This document shows, one piece after another, positions 11,476-59,980 of a stretch of DNA of 64,000 nt (within the stretch, counting starts at the first letter, position 1; each line of letters begins with the position of its first letter). The position numbers and the translations under genes are program-made. The notes beneath the pieces were generated by a model that did not search any database, had not been told where the DNA came from, and saw only the letters and a program-made list of their open reading frames with translations. This DNA comes from an uncultured Erysipelotrichaceae bacterium. Its GTDB lineage: Bacteria > Bacillota_I > Bacilli_A > RF39 > UBA660. The stretch lies in the NCBI GenBank assembly GCA_902779035.1, contig CACZAH010000007.1, positions 1,184-65,183 on the forward strand. Reading direction: 5' to 3'.

Positions 11476-11545
11476 GGAATTGTAATCTATGAAAGATTAT
11501 AAATTCCTTTTTTCTATGTTATAATCTTATTAGAAGGTGAGATTA

Positions 11546-12427
11546 ATGAATAAATATATGGATGATTTTATTAATTATTTAGAATATGAAAGAAACTATT
11601 CTAATAATACAATTATTGCTTATAAAAATGATATTATAGAGTTTATAGATTATTTAGATACTAAAAGAATAATTAATATTAGTGATGTAGATTATGATAC
11701 AATTAGATCATACTTAAGTTATTTATATGATAATAAATATAAAGCTAAATCTATATCTAGAATGATTAGTTCATTACGTAGTTTCTTTAAGTATTTAAAA
11801 GTAAATAAGATTATTACTAACAATCCTATGACATTAATAAGTAATCCTAAAGTAGAAAAGAAACTACCTAAGTATTTAACTATTAATGAAGTAGAATCCA
11901 TATTGAATGCTCCTGATATGAATGATCCTGTAGGTATTCGTGATGCATTTATTTTAGAACTACTTTATGTTAGTGGAATTAGAGTGTCAGAACTAGTTAA
12001 TATTAAAATTAGTGATATAGAAGAAACTGATAAAAGAATTAAAATATTTGGTAAAGGTAGTAAGGAAAGATATGTATTATATGGTAGTAGGTGCAAAGAA
12101 TTATTAAATAAATATTTAAGTATTAGGAATACATTTTTAAAATACCCAAATGATTATTTAATACTTAGTATTACTGGTAAGAAACTAAATCCAAGAGAAG
12201 TTAGAAATATAATAAATAGAATAAAAGTAAAAGCAGGAGTATCTATTTCTATTTCTCCTCATACATTTCGTCATACATTTGCTACGCATATGTTAAATGA
12301 AGGAGCAGATATTCGTGCAGTACAAGAACTATTAGGACATGAGAATCTATCTACTACAACCATTTATACTCATCTAACTAATGAAAAACTAAGAAAAACA
12401 TATTTAAATACACATCCTAGAGCTTAA
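11546..12427 (+). CDS. Tyrosine recombinase, XerC/XerD family
   Basis: Catalytic region ...SPHTFRHTFATHMLNEGADIRAVQELLGHENLSTTTIYTH; about 293 aa. ATG 11546 follows GAAGGTGAG. Confidence 0.85.
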   Translation: MNKYMDDFINYLEYERNYSNNTIIAYKNDIIEFIDYLDTKRIINISDVDYDTIRSYLSYLYDNKYKAKSISRMISSLRSFFKYLKVNKIITNNPMTLISNPKVEKKLPKYLTINEVESILNAPDMNDPVGIRDAFILELLYVSGIRVSELVNIKISDIEETDKRIKIFGKGSKERYVLYGSRCKELLNKYLSIRNTFLKYPNDYLILSITGKKLNPREVRNIINRIKVKAGVSISISPHTFRHTFATHMLNEGADIRAVQELLGHENLSTTTIYTHLTNEKLRKTYLNTHPRA

Positions 12428-53758: not shown

Positions 53759-53868
53759 CTAACTTCCTCCTTTACTATATTTAGTATATAATATTTTTGA
53801 TTTAATGTCCATATATTAGTTTTATTTTTAGTTAAAAAATTGTATAATGGATATTAAGGAGGTTGAAT

Positions 53869-56800
53869 ATGAAAATAGTAACTATTGATGGAAATGAGGC
53901 TTGTAGTACTTCTTCTTACTATTTTACAGAAGTTGCTGGAATATATCCGATAACGCCATCTAGTCCAATGGCAGAAAATACAGAAGTATTGTCTAATAAA
54001 GGTGAAAAAAATATCTTTGGTGATACAGTTAAGTTAGTAGAAATGGAGTCAGAACTAGGAGCTGCAGGATTTATACACGGGGCACTCCAAAGTGGGGTAC
54101 TTGCTACTACTTATACTGCATCGCAGGGTTTACTTTTAATGATACCAAATATGTATAAAATAGCAGGAGAAATGCTACCTGGAGTAATACACGTTGCTGC
54201 ACGCACGTTATCTACACATGCTTTAAGTATATTTGGGGATCACTCTGATATATATGCAACTCGTTCTACAGGATTTTCGATGCTTGCATCATCATCAGTA
54301 CAAGATGCTGCACTATTATCTGCAGTTGCGCACCTTTCTAGTATTAAATCAAGTATTCCTTTTATTCATTTCTTTGATGGTTTTAGAACTAGTCATGAGA
54401 TAAATAAAATTAAAATATTAGAACGTGATGATTATAAAGATTTAATCGATTATGAAGCTATTGATAAATTTAGAAAAAGAAGTTTAGTAGATAGAGTAAA
54501 AACTGTAGGAACAAATCAGAATGATGATATATATTTTCAAAGTGTAGAAGCTAAGAATAATGATTATAATAAAGTTGCAGATATAGTTGAATACTATATG
54601 AAAGAAGTAGGTAGTAAAGTAGGCATTGATTATAAACCATTTAATTATTATGGGAGTAAGAGTGCAACTAAAGTAATAGTTGCTTTAGGGTCAGTATGTG
54701 AAACAATTAAAGAATACATAGATAAGGTAGATAGTAGTGTTGGTTTAATAGAAGTACATCTATATCGTCCATTTAGTGTAAAACACTTGCTTAATGTAAT
54801 ACCTAGTAGTGTTAAAAATATTGCTGTACTTGATAGAACTAAAGAGCATGGAAGTACTGGTGAACCACTATACTTAGATATAGTATCAAGTCTTAAGGAT
54901 AAGGACATTAATATAGTAGGTGGTAGATACGGACTATCAAGCAAGAATACTACACCTTCTGATATTGCTGCTATATATAATATGTTAGATAATCCAATTA
55001 ATAATTTTACAGTAGGTATAATAGATGATGTTACTCATTTATCACTTGATAAAATAGATACAGTAATTGATGATACTAAAGATATATTAATATATGGATA
55101 TGGTTCTGACGGTATGGTTAGTGCATCTAAATCATTAATTAAATTAATAGGTAATCATACTGATAAATATGTACAGGCCTATTTTCAGTATGATTCTAAA
55201 AAGTCAGGTGGAGTTACTGTATCACATTTAAGAGTAAGTGATGATGTAATAAAAAAGACATATTATGTAGATAATCCAAGTCTACTAGTTATTAGTAAAG
55301 ATAATTATTTAAGAGATTTTAATCTAGTAAAAGATATAAAAGAAAATGGAATATGTATAATTAATACTATTAAAAATGAAGAAGAATTAAATAGTTATAT
55401 GTCTAGTAGCATTAAAGAATTATTTATAAAAAGAAATATAAAAGTATATACTATAAATGCTTATAAGATAGCTTTTGATGTTAACTTAAGAAATAAAATA
55501 AGTATGATTATGGAGTCATGTATAATAACACTTACTAACTTTTTAGATAAAGAGGTAATGTTTAAATATTTAATAGATGATATTAAGACTAAGTTTAAGA
55601 AAAAAGGTAGTGAGGTAATAGAAGCAAATATTAAAGCAATTAGTTTAGTACCTGATTATATTAAGAAAGTAACTATTAATAATGATGATACGACTAATAT
55701 TGAGCTAAATAGTTTTTATGATAAGATAATGAAAAGGGAAGGTAATAGTATTCCTGTATCTGAATTTATTCCTGTTCGTGATGGATCATTTACAGGTACG
55801 GTAAGTAACTCTAATAGCAACTTAGAAATAGTACCAAATTGGATTAAAGAGAATTGTATTAACTGTAACCAGTGTAGTATAGTATGCCCTCATGGAGTAA
55901 TTAGACCATTTGTATTAAGTGAGGAAGAGTATAATAATGCTCCAGATTATATAAAAGATTACTGTATGCCTTCACTAGATAAAAAAGGATATTTTGCTTT
56001 AGGGTTCTCACTTAATAACTGTACAGGATGCATGCGGTGTGTAAGTGTATGTCCTGGGTTAAAGGGTTTAAAAGCACTTGCAACTACTAGTGATGCTATT
56101 ACTAATCACTATCAAAAAGTATTTGACTATTTAGAGAGTAATATAAGTTTAAAAGACTATAATAAATATACATTAAAGGGTAGTCAGTTTATTAATCCAA
56201 AGTTTAAATATCCAGGTTCATGTCAGGGATGTGGAGAGACTTCATATTTAAAATTACTTACTCAATTATTTGATAATCTAATAATAAGTAATGCAACAGG
56301 ATGTTCTAGTATATATGGTGGAATAGTACCAAGTATGCCTTATAATGTTCCTTGGGCAAGTAGTTTATTTGAAGATAATGCTGAATATGGATATGGAATG
56401 AGTGTATCTATTAATAAAATTAGAAATAGAATAAAACATATTATGGAAGATAATATGGATAATGAGAATAAAGAGTTATTTAATAAATGGCTTGACAACT
56501 ATGATGATTATGAAACTACCAAGTATGTATTTGATAACTTAACTAGCAATATACCAAATGAATTAAAGAGCATTAAAGAATATATTGTTAAAAAATCAGT
56601 ATGGTGTGTTGGAGGAGATGGTTGGGCATATGATATTGGATATGGTGGAATAGACCATGTACTCGCAACAGGAGATGATATAAATATTCTTGTGCTTGAT
56701 ACCGAAGTATATTCTAATACTGGAGGGCAGGCAAGTAAATCAACTAACTTAGGTACACTTGCAGAGTTTGCAGATACTGGTAAGAAAACAAACAAAAAGG

Positions 56801-57201
56801 ATCTTGCACGCATGTGTATGAGTATACCAAACTGTTATGTTGCGCAAGTATCAATGGCTAATCCTAATCAAGTGATTAGAGCTTTAAAAGAAGCTAATGA
56901 ATATAATGGACCTAGTATAGTTATTGCATATTCAGTATGTATTTCTCATGGAATAAAGGGTGGTATGACTAAAAGTTATGAAATAGAGCGTCTTGCATTA
57001 GAATCAGGATACTTTCCAACATTTAGATATCATCCAATAGATGGATATAAGTTTGATAGTAAGAATGTAGACTTTGACAAATATCGTAAGTTTGTTGATA
57101 GTCAAACTAGATTTAATCTAATAAGTAAAAATCAAGAACTATATGATAAATGCTTAAGTGAACTTAAGAAAAGATATAAATATTATGAAGAATTAAAATA
57201 A
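53869..57201 (+). CDS. nifJ: Pyruvate:ferredoxin (flavodoxin) oxidoreductase, single-polypeptide type
   Basis: About 1110 aa; two 4Fe-4S ferredoxin motifs (CINCNQCSIVCPHG, CTGCMRCVSVCPG) and the ThDP motif GGDGWAYDIGYGG. AAGGAGG precedes ATG 53869. Confidence 0.95.
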   Translation: MKIVTIDGNEACSTSSYYFTEVAGIYPITPSSPMAENTEVLSNKGEKNIFGDTVKLVEMESELGAAGFIHGALQSGVLATTYTASQGLLLMIPNMYKIAGEMLPGVIHVAARTLSTHALSIFGDHSDIYATRSTGFSMLASSSVQDAALLSAVAHLSSIKSSIPFIHFFDGFRTSHEINKIKILERDDYKDLIDYEAIDKFRKRSLVDRVKTVGTNQNDDIYFQSVEAKNNDYNKVADIVEYYMKEVGSKVGIDYKPFNYYGSKSATKVIVALGSVCETIKEYIDKVDSSVGLIEVHLYRPFSVKHLLNVIPSSVKNIAVLDRTKEHGSTGEPLYLDIVSSLKDKDINIVGGRYGLSSKNTTPSDIAAIYNMLDNPINNFTVGIIDDVTHLSLDKIDTVIDDTKDILIYGYGSDGMVSASKSLIKLIGNHTDKYVQAYFQYDSKKSGGVTVSHLRVSDDVIKKTYYVDNPSLLVISKDNYLRDFNLVKDIKENGICIINTIKNEEELNSYMSSSIKELFIKRNIKVYTINAYKIAFDVNLRNKISMIMESCIITLTNFLDKEVMFKYLIDDIKTKFKKKGSEVIEANIKAISLVPDYIKKVTINNDDTTNIELNSFYDKIMKREGNSIPVSEFIPVRDGSFTGTVSNSNSNLEIVPNWIKENCINCNQCSIVCPHGVIRPFVLSEEEYNNAPDYIKDYCMPSLDKKGYFALGFSLNNCTGCMRCVSVCPGLKGLKALATTSDAITNHYQKVFDYLESNISLKDYNKYTLKGSQFINPKFKYPGSCQGCGETSYLKLLTQLFDNLIISNATGCSSIYGGIVPSMPYNVPWASSLFEDNAEYGYGMSVSINKIRNRIKHIMEDNMDNENKELFNKWLDNYDDYETTKYVFDNLTSNIPNELKSIKEYIVKKSVWCVGGDGWAYDIGYGGIDHVLATGDDINILVLDTEVYSNTGGQASKSTNLGTLAEFADTGKKTNKKDLARMCMSIPNCYVAQVSMANPNQVIRALKEANEYNGPSIVIAYSVCISHGIKGGMTKSYEIERLALESGYFPTFRYHPIDGYKFDSKNVDFDKYRKFVDSQTRFNLISKNQELYDKCLSELKKRYKYYEELK

Positions 57202-57231: not shown

Positions 57232-57267
57232 ACAAAAATGACGACCATATGGTCGTCTTCAGGGGGG
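57232..57267 (-). terminator. Conserved module copy A (minus strand: CCCCCCUGAA-GACGACC-AUAU-GGUCGUC-AUUUUUGU)
   Basis: One of three copies with the same flanks, (A)CAAAA(A)TGA ... CTTCAGGGGG on the + strand. On the minus strand it is a GC-rich hairpin plus U-tract, lying 3' of the LRR gene. Confidence 0.6.
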
Positions 57268-57370
57268 CCGAGTTTTTGGCTTTATGAGATATTCGTGACC
57301 CGTTAATTCCCTTTATTACTCGTTAATTTTGCACTTGAGCACACTTGAGAGAACTTGGGAATTTAGAAAA

Positions 57371-57381
57371 TTCGTATGTAA
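57371..57381. repeat. 11-mer TTCGTATGTAA (copy in the 3' flank of the LRR gene)
   Basis: The extended match AATTCGTATGTAAAAT is shared with 58846..58861. Confidence 0.6.
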
Positions 57382-57396
57382 AATCGTGTGTAATTA

Positions 57397-58689
57397 TCAT
57401 TTAGATTTTGAACTATTATCAATCAATAATTCTTCCTGATTTTCTAAGAATAATTTTATATATTCTGGACTTATGCTAGGATATATACCTCCCACTCCAT
57501 TTTCTTCAAATGATAATGTGTGATTTTGACTTATGTCACTCCTATTTTTTAAACAATAAGGTAATGAGGTGTCTCCCTTATGCCATCTACAAGAATCCCA
57601 ACAAGGGTCACAATAGTACATTGCATCTCCAACTTCAACTCTGATAATACTATAATAACCATCATCAGGTAATTCAACTTGATTACCATAGTGTTCATTA
57701 ATTTTTATTTTATCTTTGCCTCCTATACAGTAGACATTTTTTGTTTTTATTTCTAATAGTTTCAACAAGTATTGCATTGATCTAGTATACCCCTCACATA
57801 CGCAAGAACCGTATATTAAACCATTATATGCACTTTGAGTTCCATTACTATAACCCCGTCTAACACCATTAGTCTCATGAAATCTCCCTTTCCTTTCTAA
57901 TGCATCATAATCGTAAGTAATATGCTCAGCAATATATTTTTCAATTAGTATAATTATGTTAAGAGTATTTTCCGGTTTTTGTGATAATATTTCTTTTGCG
58001 ATTTCTAAACATCGTTTTTGAAATAATGAAGCAGTGCCACAATTATAATGAACATCTTTTCCAGAAGAACAAGTCTCGTAAAATTGGCAATTTGGAATTG
58101 CTAATAATTTAGGTATCAGTCCACTAACCTCAGGAAAATTAAGCAAATCTAATTCTAAAACATCTAATTTATTGTGTTCTATTAAATTAACTATACCTCG
58201 CAAATCAAATAATTCTTTATTACCAAAAATGCTGATTTCTTTTATTTTTTCTAAAGACTCTAGACCTTCTACTAAGTCAATTCCATTATTTCTTTCAATT
58301 GAAAGAAATCCTAAATTTACCAAATCAGTAACATCGACCCAAGTAATACCTTTTTGACCTACTATTGACAAAGATTCTAATGAAGTAAGTTTAGCTATTA
58401 TTTTAATATCAGCATCAGAAATACTCATATTGCTATTACTAAAAGCACTATAAGATTTATTTATAACCTTAAGTGATTTTAAATTATGACAATGTTCAAT
58501 TCCTTGTAAACATCCGGCAGTTGGTTCATCTATTTGAATCTCTAATACTTGATCTAATTCTTCTTGAGTAAACTGAAAAGATAATCCACCACCATTATCT
58601 TTACGTGGTTCTATACCTAGATTACTTAAATATTTAACAATAGGTATTCCTATTTTATATGGCAACTTAATTAATTCCATACTCATCAC
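57397..58689 (-). CDS. Leucine-rich-repeat protein fused to a transglutaminase-like (papain-fold) domain; no signal peptide
   Basis: The N-terminal half has LxxLxLxxN-type repeats (LKSLKVIN.., LTSLESLSIVG.., LVNLGFLSIERNN.., LESLEKIKEISIFGN..). The C-terminal half has YGSCVCEGYTRSMQYLLKLLEI (Cys-nucleophile context of transglutaminase-like proteases) and ..VEVGDAMYYCDPCWD. Confidence 0.65.
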   Translation of the reverse strand: MMSMELIKLPYKIGIPIVKYLSNLGIEPRKDNGGGLSFQFTQEELDQVLEIQIDEPTAGCLQGIEHCHNLKSLKVINKSYSAFSNSNMSISDADIKIIAKLTSLESLSIVGQKGITWVDVTDLVNLGFLSIERNNGIDLVEGLESLEKIKEISIFGNKELFDLRGIVNLIEHNKLDVLELDLLNFPEVSGLIPKLLAIPNCQFYETCSSGKDVHYNCGTASLFQKRCLEIAKEILSQKPENTLNIIILIEKYIAEHITYDYDALERKGRFHETNGVRRGYSNGTQSAYNGLIYGSCVCEGYTRSMQYLLKLLEIKTKNVYCIGGKDKIKINEHYGNQVELPDDGYYSIIRVEVGDAMYYCDPCWDSCRWHKGDTSLPYCLKNRSDISQNHTLSFEENGVGGIYPSISPEYIKLFLENQEELLIDNSSKSK

Positions 58690-58810
58690 CTATAATAATT
58701 ATAACATGAAATAATATAAAAAATTTACTATTTTGTTCCAAACGCACTGAAGAGAGCGAGTTTTATATTATTTTCTTATTTTATAAAGGTTTACTTACAT
58801 TAAATATTAA

Positions 58811-58858
58811 TTACATACGAATTACATACGAAAAAAACCGCATATAATTCGTATGTAA
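58811..58858. repeat. 11-mer cluster: two tandem TTACATACGAA (58811-58821, 58822-58832) plus one inverted TTCGTATGTAA (58848-58858)
   Basis: Seen directly. The 11-bp inverted repeat has a 15-nt spacer, and the left arm is duplicated in tandem. It lies in the 5' region of the LRR gene. Confidence 0.6.
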
Positions 58859-58912
58859 AATGCATTTTTTTTAAAAGCATATACTCGCAATTCCTTATAA
58901 ATACTGGGATTA

Positions 58913-58949
58913 ACAAAAATGAGACGTCTCTCGACGCCTCTTCAGGGGG
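58913..58949 (-). terminator. Conserved module copy B (minus strand: CCCCCUGAA-GAGGCGUC-GAGA-GACGUCUC-AUUUUUGU)
   Basis: Same flanks as copies A and C, but the stem sequence differs while staying paired (one mismatch). It lies between the two minus-strand genes. Confidence 0.6.
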
Positions 58950-59083
58950 AAAACTTACATCATGTACTCCTAAACACTTTTCTTTTATATTATAACGAAT
59001 TATCGTTTAATAAAGTTTAGAAAGGTTTAACTAAATACCATATAATTTACTACTTTTGATAGTTGAGTGGGTTGTTGAAATAG

Positions 59084-59122
59084 AAAAAATCTAGTAAGTG
59101 TAGTGGGGCTTGCTAGGTTTTT
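59084..59122 (-). terminator. Intrinsic (bidirectional) terminator 3' of ORF 59138..59692
   Basis: Stem CTAGCAAG / CTTACTAG (one wobble) with a 10-nt loop, followed by AUUUUUU on the minus strand. Confidence 0.6.
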
Positions 59123-59137
59123 ATCTACTGTTATTTT

Positions 59138-59692
59138 TTAAATAGTGCCAAATGATTTTCTTAAAGCTTTTTCTTTTTTTGCTTGAGGAGTACCTAGTTT
59201 TAATACATAATTATTTGTAGTTAATAAATGTTCCTCTTTAATTGAGGTTGTTATTTCTTCTCTATTATAATTATATATTGGAACGTTTATATATCTATTT
59301 CGAATTATCCCTAAATCATCTTTGTTAAAACTATAATCTTTGTGATATACTTGAGATTTTAACAATAATTCTGGACTTGTTTTAATAGATAAATTGTTTA
59401 ATTGTTTAGATAAAAGTTCCAATTTAATATTAGCTAAATCCATAGTAGTTTTTTTAGCCATTATGGATAGAATTAATTCTCCCAAACCAATAGATATAGT
59501 AGCCGCTATCACAGTTGTAGGAACTACCACATTTGCTGGATATTGATCGTTTATTGAATTAATTAGTACAGCAACAGGATATCCCAATTCTAATGGTTTG
59601 CTAATTATAGAAAATCCTTTAGGCACCTTCTTTATTCCTTTTGCTTCTTTAATTACATATAATAAATCATAATTTATTATTATTTGTGACAT
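59138..59692 (-). CDS. Hypothetical protein with one central hydrophobic segment
   Basis: 184-aa ORF with GAGAGGAAG SD; the segment VVVPTTVIAATISIGLGELILSIMA is hydrophobic. No family recognised. Confidence 0.55.
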   Translation of the reverse strand: MSQIIINYDLLYVIKEAKGIKKVPKGFSIISKPLELGYPVAVLINSINDQYPANVVVPTTVIAATISIGLGELILSIMAKKTTMDLANIKLELLSKQLNNLSIKTSPELLLKSQVYHKDYSFNKDDLGIIRNRYINVPIYNYNREEITTSIKEEHLLTTNNYVLKLGTPQAKKEKALRKSFGTI

Positions 59693-59781
59693 ATATTATC
59701 TTCCTCTCAGTGCTTAATATAATATCAAATAAAGAAAAAAAAGTAAATAAAATTACTACATAAATGTATTTAAACTATAAT

Positions 59782-59874
59782 AAACAAAATGACGACCTCT
59801 CGGTCGTCTTCAGGGGGTTTTGGTTCGTACTCTTACACTTAGAAAGTAAGAGTACTGGCATGGAGTATCATGCC
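59782..59874 (-). ncRNA. Candidate ~90-nt small RNA / leader ending in conserved module copy C
   Basis: Bounded by a consensus promoter (59881-59909) and a terminator (GACGACC-GAGA-GGUCGUC-AUUUUGUUU). It has a 5' hairpin GGCAUG/CAUGCC, a perfect 10-bp hairpin GUACUCUUAC/GUAAGAGUAC and a single-stranded GAACCAAAACCCCCUGAA stretch. Confidence 0.45.
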
Positions 59875-59880
59875 AATATT

Positions 59881-59909
59881 ATTGTATAAAATTTTTGCGC
59901 TTATGTCAA
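59881..59909 (-). promoter_or_regulatory. Sigma-70-type promoter (minus strand) driving the sRNA/leader
   Basis: Minus strand: TTGACA (59909-59904), 17-nt spacer, TACAAT (59886-59881). Confidence 0.55.
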
Positions 59910-59980
59910 TTAGTTTTTCATAAATTTTTAAAAATGTGTATAAAAGTAAAAAATATAATCATAATAGTATTGGTGATGAT

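Follow-up and report, generated by a model that had tools for sequence, protein, structure and literature searches.

We analyzed a 64,000-nt (64-kb) stretch of contig CACZAH010000007.1 from an uncultured Erysipelotrichaceae bacterium, hereafter the window, in which the region between nifJ and a CotF-domain gene holds three direct copies (A, B and C) of a short module composed of a C-rich motif and a hairpin. These modules are very probably the right attachment site (attR), the hybrid junction and the left attachment site (attL) of two integrase-less cassettes, comparable to cis-mobilizable elements (CIMEs), that were accreted in tandem at the 3' end of a small RNA (sRNA) gene. The central point, absent from the original prediction that drew attention to the modules, is that copy C is the 3' end of a conserved sRNA gene that serves as the attachment site. 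Comparisons across strains and species place the insert boundaries at the modules, recover both empty and filled sites, locate integrases beside the site in relatives, and show that the sRNA is conserved with covarying helices.

On the minus strand, every module reads CCCCC(C)UGAAG, followed by a GC-stem of 7-8 bp with a tetraloop, and then AUUUU(U)GU. The coordinates at which they had been placed are borne out, and in the reading preferred here they are as follows:

57232-57267, minus strand: module A, probable attR; CCCCCCUGAAGA, the hairpin GACGACC-AUAU-GGUCGUC, then AUUUUUGU
58912/58913-58949, minus strand: module B, probable cassette junction (attR of cassette 1 and attL of cassette 2); core CCCCCUGAAGA, the hairpin GAGGCGUC-GAGA-GACGUCUC, then AUUUUUGU
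59784-59817, minus strand: module C, probable attL and also the terminator of the sRNA; core CCCCCUGAAGA, the hairpin GACGACC-GAGA-GGUCGUC, then AUUUUGU

Module A lies 30 nt beyond the nifJ stop (57201), and on the other flank a 78-aa open reading frame (ORF) and the CotF-domain ORF start at 59936. Between the direct copies, which flank inserted DNA in the order C, B, A, are two minus-strand ORFs: one of 184 aa (59138-59692), 92 nt downstream of C, and one of 430 aa (57397-58689), 224 nt downstream of B. Modules A and B comprise only the last ~35 nt of the sRNA gene; in contrast, module C is joined to ~60 nt more of conserved structured RNA with its own promoter, so that the body of the sRNA is attached at C only. 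A search of the window for CTTCAGGGGG with at most one mismatch returned three sites alone (57257, 58940 and 59808), just as had been claimed, against a shuffle expectation of 0.41; three matches were reached in 2 of 100 shuffles. The modules fold with -12.3, -13.7 and -13.1 kcal/mol (z -3.0 to -4.1) and are predicted to be Rho-independent terminators, having a GC-rich hairpin and a U-tract on the transcribed strand; a 3.5-kb region has seven intrinsic-terminator-like sites on the minus strand, A, B and C among them, where 0.7 would be expected. Their stems are paired despite being different, with GACGACC/GGUCGUC in A and C and GAGGCGUC/GACGUCUC in B, as had been noticed at the outset. Further, the earlier proposal that selection acts on structure rather than on a peptide is strengthened by compensatory changes at six of the seven pairs of the terminator stem. 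One pair in the stem of B is G·U; read from the opposite strand it becomes a C·A mismatch, which identifies the minus strand as the RNA strand.

The sRNA gene that ends in module C has the following predicted parts:

59881-59909, minus strand: predicted promoter of the sigma-70 type, TTGACA, 17 nt, TACAAT, matching the consensus at 11 of 12 positions
59784-59876, minus strand: predicted sRNA gene of ~92 nt, made up of hairpin 1, hairpin 2, a single-stranded segment, and the terminator hairpin with its U-tract (module C)
59857-59874, minus strand: predicted hairpin 1
59827-59855, minus strand: predicted hairpin 2
59809-59826, minus strand: conserved, predicted single-stranded segment of 18 nt, GAACCAAAACCCCCUGAA

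The 5' end of the gene is placed tentatively, from the -10 box. The same layout recurs in 52 distinct cases, namely TTGACA, 17 nt, a TATAAT-like box, hairpin 1 (GCAUGAUA...UCAUGC), hairpin 2 (ACUCUUACG...GUGAGAGU) and then UUCAACCAAAA, with the TTGACA/TAtaAT-like promoter of other species at an equal distance upstream of hairpin 1. Trained on 38 species, a covariance model detects a single full copy in the window (59782-59889, 84.6 bits, E 2.5e-13) and a partial match of 40.5 bits at module B, along with 59 matches of 60-106 bits in other loci, 56 of them full-length. In the model-fitted alignment 91.6% of the cells are paired, as against 33-54% when the partners are slid by 1-3 columns; compensatory changes are seen in 21 of the 22 pairs, and the observed measures were reached by none of 500 shuffles. 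Hairpin 2 and the terminator were also recovered, with covariation, by RNAalifold on a plain MAFFT alignment. The sRNA of the window itself folds into three hairpins with a minimum free energy of -37.6 kcal/mol (z -7.1).

This sRNA family appears to be undescribed, being absent from Rfam 15 and from the searchable literature: the whole window has no match to Rfam at the gathering thresholds, and neither the sRNA of the window locus nor those of eight further species' loci are matched by Rfam 15. Relaxing the search at the locus to E values of up to 10 yielded ncr982 (24 bits), S15-Flavobacteria, mir-2566 and rli30, all at chance level. The first of these, the Bacillus sRNA ncr982 (RF02454), is the best Rfam match at copy B and shares with it a U-rich/C-rich stretch followed by a terminator hairpin; however, its 24.3 bits against a gathering threshold of 50 (E 1.7) amount to a chance-level resemblance in generic terminator shape. 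A hammerhead-like reading of CUGAAGAG...GAAA was ruled out by inspection, there being no GAAA or stem III after the stem, and identities with preQ1-I, mini-ykkC and SRP/4.5S RNA are unsupported, with no Rfam match and the diagnostic motifs absent.

We infer that the sRNA is transcribed and functional, and the fact that mobile elements would rebuild it at each insertion suggests that it is probably important to the cell. Speculatively, its C-rich single strand ACCAAAACCCCCUGAAG could pair with ribosome-binding sites of the AGGGGG type. In 43 loci recG immediately precedes the gene, and nifJ-recG-sRNA is a frequent order. The window departs from this usual one-strand arrangement of most other species (L010-L111, L137, L142): its sRNA and nifJ (53863-57201) are convergent, and tblastn found no RecG in the 64 kb; the convergent orientation and the missing recG point to a rearrangement at the hotspot in this lineage.

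The original prediction that the genes are bracketed by modules as in a cassette-like insert, for which it looked to the nifJ-cotF junction of relatives, is upheld by the strains of the same species, where the breakpoints lie exactly at the modules. Conspecific contigs, defined by an identical 82-aa CotF protein, fall into three types. The first (L130, L133, L134) has the arrangement of the window. The second (L128, L129, L132) has an sRNA and stem identical to those of the window with the loop TTAT in place of GAGA, after which come AACCACCCAT/AACTACCCAT repeats and a convergent tyrosine integrase of 370 aa (Arm-DNA-bind_4 + Phage_integrase), positioned 92 nt from the module in L128 and L129; beyond it are a MobV relaxase, an AAA_25 ATPase and a helix-turn-helix (HTH) protein. 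This gene set is an integrative mobilizable element (IME), of which a MobV relaxase together with a tyrosine integrase forms a typical module (PMC5704250). In the third type (L131), the end of nifJ is followed by a decayed copy A' (tttttCCTGAAGGCGACCATATGGTGGTCGTCATTTTTG), two Fic genes, and then C and the sRNA. The C-run of A' (100-150) is down to CC and its stem has a base change and a 3-nt insertion, with the sRNA-proximal copy intact. Across the strains, identity stops within the C-run on the A side and right after ...CATTTTGTTT on the C side.

Public ruminant-gut metagenomes, which contain the organism, supplied further junctions. In one contig of run X25, position 58938 is joined to 59807, skipping 868 nt with 11 shared bases, such that the sRNA sits directly on the hairpin of B; going by this junction sequence, the contig is the precise absence of cassette 1. 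In contigs from other samples, cassette 1 adjoins different partners, and in run X2 the window type and the mobilizable-element type are both present. On the nifJ side, the look-up returned contigs of the window arrangement only, and no empty site in this species. In one contig of run X2, the 3' end of nifJ (57197) runs into other sequence (GGGTAAAATAACTATGCAGAATTTAAAGAA); this may come from a relative with a different gene after nifJ.

These strain types also bear on whether the modules could be cis-regulatory attenuators, or expression platforms of riboswitches, for the minus-strand genes downstream of them. The distances from C and B to the 184-aa and 430-aa ORFs (92 and 224 nt) would suit such a role, as would the structured RNA and promoter that precede C. 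However, A and B are without upstream structured RNA, and there is no gene downstream of A; the gene that follows C varies by strain (an antisense integrase, Fic, or the 184-aa ORF) while the RNA is identical; and the locus has neither a conserved competing antiterminator nor an Rfam family at threshold. We consider this explanation extremely improbable. Hence, of the three readings offered originally, those of recombination or cassette boundaries and of terminators belonging to a degraded mobile element stand, and that of attenuators is unsupported.

The association of the module with an sRNA gene and with mobile DNA extends well beyond this species. One genome per bacterial species (GTDB contigs) was scanned with the pattern AAAATGA-N12-20-TCTTCAGGGGG, yielding at least 120 loci; together with seven loci from viral contigs and the three copies of the window, these make up 133 listed matches, among which 94 have a stem of at least 5 bp. 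The stem-bearing matches are nearly all from gut metagenome-assembled genomes (MAGs) labelled as uncultured Bacilli, Tenericutes, Mycoplasma sp. CAG, Mollicutes or Erysipelotrichaceae. Matches lacking a hairpin are from unrelated phyla and seem fortuitous; the seven in viral contigs, none of which has a hairpin, are likewise chance matches. Among the matches listed, at least 52 distinct ones are joined to the sRNA body with a TTGACA/TATAAT promoter, and more than 50 species-level gut MAGs have the sRNA, in most cases immediately downstream of recG. Thus, the motif is tied to one kind of locus rather than scattered, which answers the search across genomes that had been proposed as a check.

At least 10 other species (about 13 on our reading) have direct modules in twos or threes, with the sRNA joined to the first one only. 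What lies between these modules as cargo is often without an integrase, and includes GmrSD with Thoeris ThsA/ThsB, and a two-component system with an ABC transporter. Among the variable genes beyond the modules are those for tyrosine integrases, which were seen in 15 loci and nearly always converge on the sRNA, and for AbiEi/AbiEii, Fic proteins, a DNA methyltransferase and an AAA ATPase accompanied by a partner protein. The hairpin type of B is seen directly on the sRNA in other genomes (L008, L017 and one X25 contig).

Two side observations concern this wider family. Across loci L001-L120, recurring cargo genes are co-oriented with the sRNA in 33 of 34 members (seven families), and integrases are opposite to it in 17 of 18 cases. 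Further, the arm of one type of element is almost the same in more than 20 species-level MAGs (L005, L009, L013, L019, L023, L041, L065, L089, L091, L093, L096, L100, L103, L112, L117 and others), with the hairpin GAGAGCAUUUAACCGUGCUCUC, then TTATGCCCATTTTATAAGGGTTTGCGAGGC, and then TTAGGTACA twice. Its cargo varies by copy (AbiEi/AbiEii in some, the AAA ATPase and its partner protein in others), with the integrase 3-4 kb off, and the near-identity of the arm in so many MAGs suggests recent horizontal spread.

The distribution of the module weighs on two further alternatives. One is that it is merely an intrinsic terminator typical of the lineage, placed at gene ends, with the strain differences arising from ordinary homologous replacement. 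It is true that all three copies are good terminator predictions, each downstream of a minus-strand gene, and A would shield nifJ from antisense read-through. Yet for all the dozens of genes in the window, no more than three copies occur, and these at a single locus; the invariant CCCCCUGAAGA is needless for termination; elsewhere the module is bound to the sRNA or to insert boundaries, with dedicated integrases of one family always adjacent to it; and the breakpoint of the 868-nt deletion falls exactly within the 11-nt core. We therefore regard it as highly improbable. The other alternative invokes repetitive extragenic palindrome (REP)-like or miniature inverted-repeat transposable element (MITE)-like units, or end hairpins of the IS200/IS605 type, moved by a Y1 (HUH) transposase. 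It is suggested by the several copies of a short conserved motif beside a variable but paired hairpin. Against it, the three copies in the window are not dispersed, being in one orientation at one locus, and arrays always start from the sRNA gene, and no TnpA/RAYT was noticed by eye among the recurring ORF families at more than 90 module loci in an all-against-all BLAST, with no dedicated search. We give this explanation next to no chance.

Relatives of the integrase provide a comparison of an occupied with an unoccupied site. The integrase of L128 has 3527 relatives at E <=1e-20. Three of these, with 74-76% identity and on long contigs of other species, are all in the same five-gene mobilizable element, where the integrase is convergent to recG with the sRNA between them and with AACTACCCA-type repeats alongside. 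In one such case (L142), 10.3 kb separate the sRNA module (11245) from a second direct module (923), and the insert holds the mobilizable element along with Fic, a beta-lactamase-fold protein and an acetyltransferase. In the related L037, recG, the sRNA and the downstream flank are collinear with those of L142, and the flank is found 83 nt past the module. By this alignment, the empty L037 and the filled L142 correspond to attB and to attL/attR, respectively.

If such integrases act at the modules, arm-type binding sites might be expected to accompany them, and candidates for these are seen in cassette 2:

58884-58908, minus strand: candidate arm motif just downstream of B, CCCAGTATTTATAAGGAATTGCGAG (family consensus ..TTTATAAGGGTTTGCGAGG), of a kind seen by eye after many modules
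58848-58858 on the minus strand, 58811-58821 and 58822-58832 on the plus strand: the 11-mer TTACATACGAA, present three times without mismatch; putative arm-type sites of cassette 2 for integrase binding
57371-57393, minus strand: putative distal arm repeats of cassette 2, with TTACATACGAA at 57371-57381 and a degenerate TTACACACGA at 57384-57393

Within the window, TTACATACGAA (at most one mismatch) has four matches, all exact and all at the ends of cassette 2. A side observation is that the 20-bp terminator-like hairpin at 58811-58858 is the inverted pair of these repeats and is probably no terminator. In other genomes, a conserved TGTTT...TTTATAAGGGTTTGCGAGG motif lies downstream of the modules in RNA orientation; a loose 8-nt regular expression for its core is matched at 46 of 78 modules, where chance at the base composition of these loci would give ~8, although its very looseness means that the 46 overstates the match. 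This motif is absent after A, whose downstream flank is the end of nifJ. Likewise, short sequences occur twice at an 11-12-nt period downstream of modules (e.g., TTAGGTACA, TTATGTGGCA, TTAGGTGGCA and AACTACCCA). Direct repeats of this period are found within 160 nt of 43 of the 78 modules (55%), as against 23 of 458 control windows (5%). The repeat sequence follows the type of integrase, with AACTACCCA accompanying integrases of the L128 family. The 11-nt repeats are probably arm sites of the integrases.

The mechanism we propose, as the simplest account, is that the 3' end of the sRNA gene serves as attB for the tyrosine integrases that small integrative elements encode, in the manner known for tRNA and transfer-messenger RNA (tmRNA) genes. 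An incoming element would carry the matching core CCCCCTGAAGA, followed by its own GC hairpin and T-run. Because the element brings all three, integration would rebuild the sRNA terminator (attL) and leave the core with the old hairpin at the distal end (attR). Two such events in tandem could yield the order sRNA, C, cassette 1 (184 aa), B, cassette 2 (430 aa), A and the end of nifJ, in which C would carry the hairpin of cassette 1, B the core with the hairpin and arm of cassette 2, and A the core with what is probably the original, ancestral terminator of the sRNA. The origin of the hairpin and U-tract in the incoming arm would account for stems that differ and yet pair, for the recurrence of stem types across species, and for the decay of distal copies beside intact proximal ones; the sRNA-proximal copy always has its stem and U-tract intact, with a loop or stem that is element-specific. 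Since CCCCCTGAAGA is common to all copies and the 868-nt deletion is joined within it, strand exchange would be located there, inside CC(C)TGAAGA; the boundary in L131 (CC|TGAAG), taken with the first base to differ after ...TGAAGA, confines it to about 7-9 nt. Each module would incidentally also act as a minus-strand intrinsic terminator insulating the cassettes and nifJ. As neither cassette has an integrase, they would be either CIME-like remnants or units dependent on an integrase supplied in trans.

Several observations count against this account. A tblastn search of the window with the integrase family recovered XerC only and no dedicated integrase, leaving continued mobility of these two cassettes unsupported. 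Cassette 2 has arm repeats unlike those of the mobilizable element in conspecific strains, and cassette 1 lacks clear arm repeats. Because the stem of B differs from that of A and C, the identity shared by the three is limited to ~11 nt and the T-run, a short stretch for an att core. Neither an excision circle nor an attP junction was seen, the raw-read runs X21 and X22 (6% sampled) being without reads of the organism. Metatranscriptome contigs span the sRNA plus its promoter and may be DNA; since they include the promoter, they neither prove an sRNA transcript nor define its ends. Finally, gain and loss at the modules could in principle come about by homologous recombination in the flanks.

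Arrays of short cassettes bounded by hairpins call to mind an integron-like platform, in which the hairpins would be attC-like single-strand sites and an integron-type integrase would capture cassettes at a fixed attI by the sRNA. The resemblance lies in the one to few genes per cassette, each ending in an imperfect-palindrome site, in the orientation of the recurring cargo with the sRNA (33 of 34 members in seven families), in the many cassettes without an integrase, and in a content rich in defence and toxin-antitoxin genes. It does not extend to the recombinase or to the site itself. The integrase of L128 scores 45 bits against the 265-bit cut-off of TIGR02249 and instead carries Arm-DNA-bind_4 + Phage_integrase, and the integrases lie within mobilizable elements rather than at a fixed array head. 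The sites are flanked by arm-type direct repeats and conserve a linear 11-nt core rather than the R''/L''-L'/R' layout of attC, each being an invariant CCCCCTGAAGA 5' of a simple stem of 6-11 bp with no GTTRRRY. Moreover, the hairpin doubles as an RNA terminator whose G·U pairs fit the RNA strand only. We thus hold a true integron-like system to be very unlikely.

An extension of the account based on CIME-like accretion is that a cassette platform starts at the sRNA gene, functionally analogous to an integron but built on arm-dependent tyrosine integrases of the lambda type, with its units moved in trans. We put this forward tentatively, judging it considerably less probable than not. Were it true, units of 1-4 genes that have no integrase but possess arms of their own and a hairpin that restores the terminator would undergo capture, shuffling and loss in trans; the site would be a main 'biobank' of defence and toxin genes in many uncultured gut Bacilli; and the target would be a regulatory RNA new to science, with crossover taking place in its conserved, single-stranded C-rich segment.

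The cargo of the two cassettes in the window is as follows:

58950-59783, minus strand: cassette 1, with a single ORF of 184 aa (59138-59692)
57397-58689, minus strand: cargo of cassette 2, a 430-aa protein whose N-terminal half is of the internalin-like leucine-rich repeat (LRR) kind and whose C-terminal half is transglutaminase-related

The 184-aa protein has a central hydrophobic stretch in its translation, as judged by eye, and no match in Pfam, PADLOC, NCBIfam or PHROGs. The 430-aa protein matches internalin A (8h62) in the PDB with E 3.7e-7 and the transglutaminase-related lipoprotein family NF045980 of NCBIfam with E 1.1e-10, far below the cut-off of that family, in addition to weak matches to LRR and DUF553 models of Pfam; PADLOC and PHROGs returned nothing for it, and no defence-system model matches either protein. 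The N-terminus of the 430-aa protein, again by eye, is unlike a signal peptide. The only tyrosine recombinase in the window is a housekeeping one of the XerC/XerD type (11537-12427, plus strand; TIGR02224, 336.7 bits).

More generally, the repeat in the window is completely explained, and its explanation reveals a conserved sRNA with three covarying helices and the invariant single-stranded ACCAAAACCCCCUGAAG, which is next to recG in most species. The 35-nt motif and the covariance model offer a practical marker for delimiting strain-variable islands in poorly known uncultured gut bacteria. Overall, the cargo seen at these islands spans Thoeris, GmrSD, AbiE, Fic, a methyltransferase, and a transporter with a two-component system.

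This organization has several thematic equivalents among known systems. Among the closest are the ssrA-specific islands of Dehalococcoides (McMurdie et al. 2011, PMC3146451), which target tmRNA with a 20-bp repeat and a serine recombinase. These too are tandem islands downstream of a single-copy gene for a small stable RNA, bounded by direct repeats of its 3' end; only some have an integration module, with the rest proposed to be cis-mobilizable, and, as here, they are a major source of strain-level variation (PMC3146451). In contrast, the system described here has an sRNA as its target, an invariant core of ~11 nt with an element-specific terminator hairpin, tyrosine recombinases with arm-binding domains, and much smaller cassettes of 0.9-4 kb. 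A second parallel is the accretion of CIMEs with tandem ICEs (integrative and conjugative elements) and IMEs in streptococci, which takes place at tRNA genes or at protein genes such as fda, rpsI and rpmG (Pavlovic 2004, Bellanger 2011, reviewed in PMC5704250). There, likewise, elements that lack an integrase retain attL and attR and form tandem arrangements with mobilizable ones at a target gene's 3' end (PMC5704250). In the CIME/IME literature we found, an sRNA is not among the targets described, and none of the elements is from these uncultured gut lineages.

Small RNA genes other than those for tRNA and tmRNA are themselves documented integration sites, as with ryeB/ryeE in enterobacteria (PMC3603311) and, for the Enterococcus phage phiEf11, ffs/4.5S RNA (PMC12540744). 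In these cases also, a hairpin-bearing sRNA gene is the attB and its 3' part is duplicated, though the RNAs and host phyla are different, and the insertions are whole prophages and not arrays of one-gene cassettes. Chromosomal integrons, for their part, share the small co-oriented cassettes, the hairpin-forming sites between them and the frequent defence or toxin genes; they differ in that the loci described here have no IntI and no attI/attC, employ arm-dependent integrases, and use as their site the end of an RNA gene that acts as a terminator. Given that integration into sRNA genes is documented and that tandem islands bounded by 3'-end repeats are classic, a known mechanism accounts for the repeat. 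The apparent novelty lies in the target sRNA and in the hotspot, which spans more than 50 species-level uncultured gut genomes and whose strikingly cassette-like inserts, 0.9-4 kb in size, abound in genes for defence and toxins.

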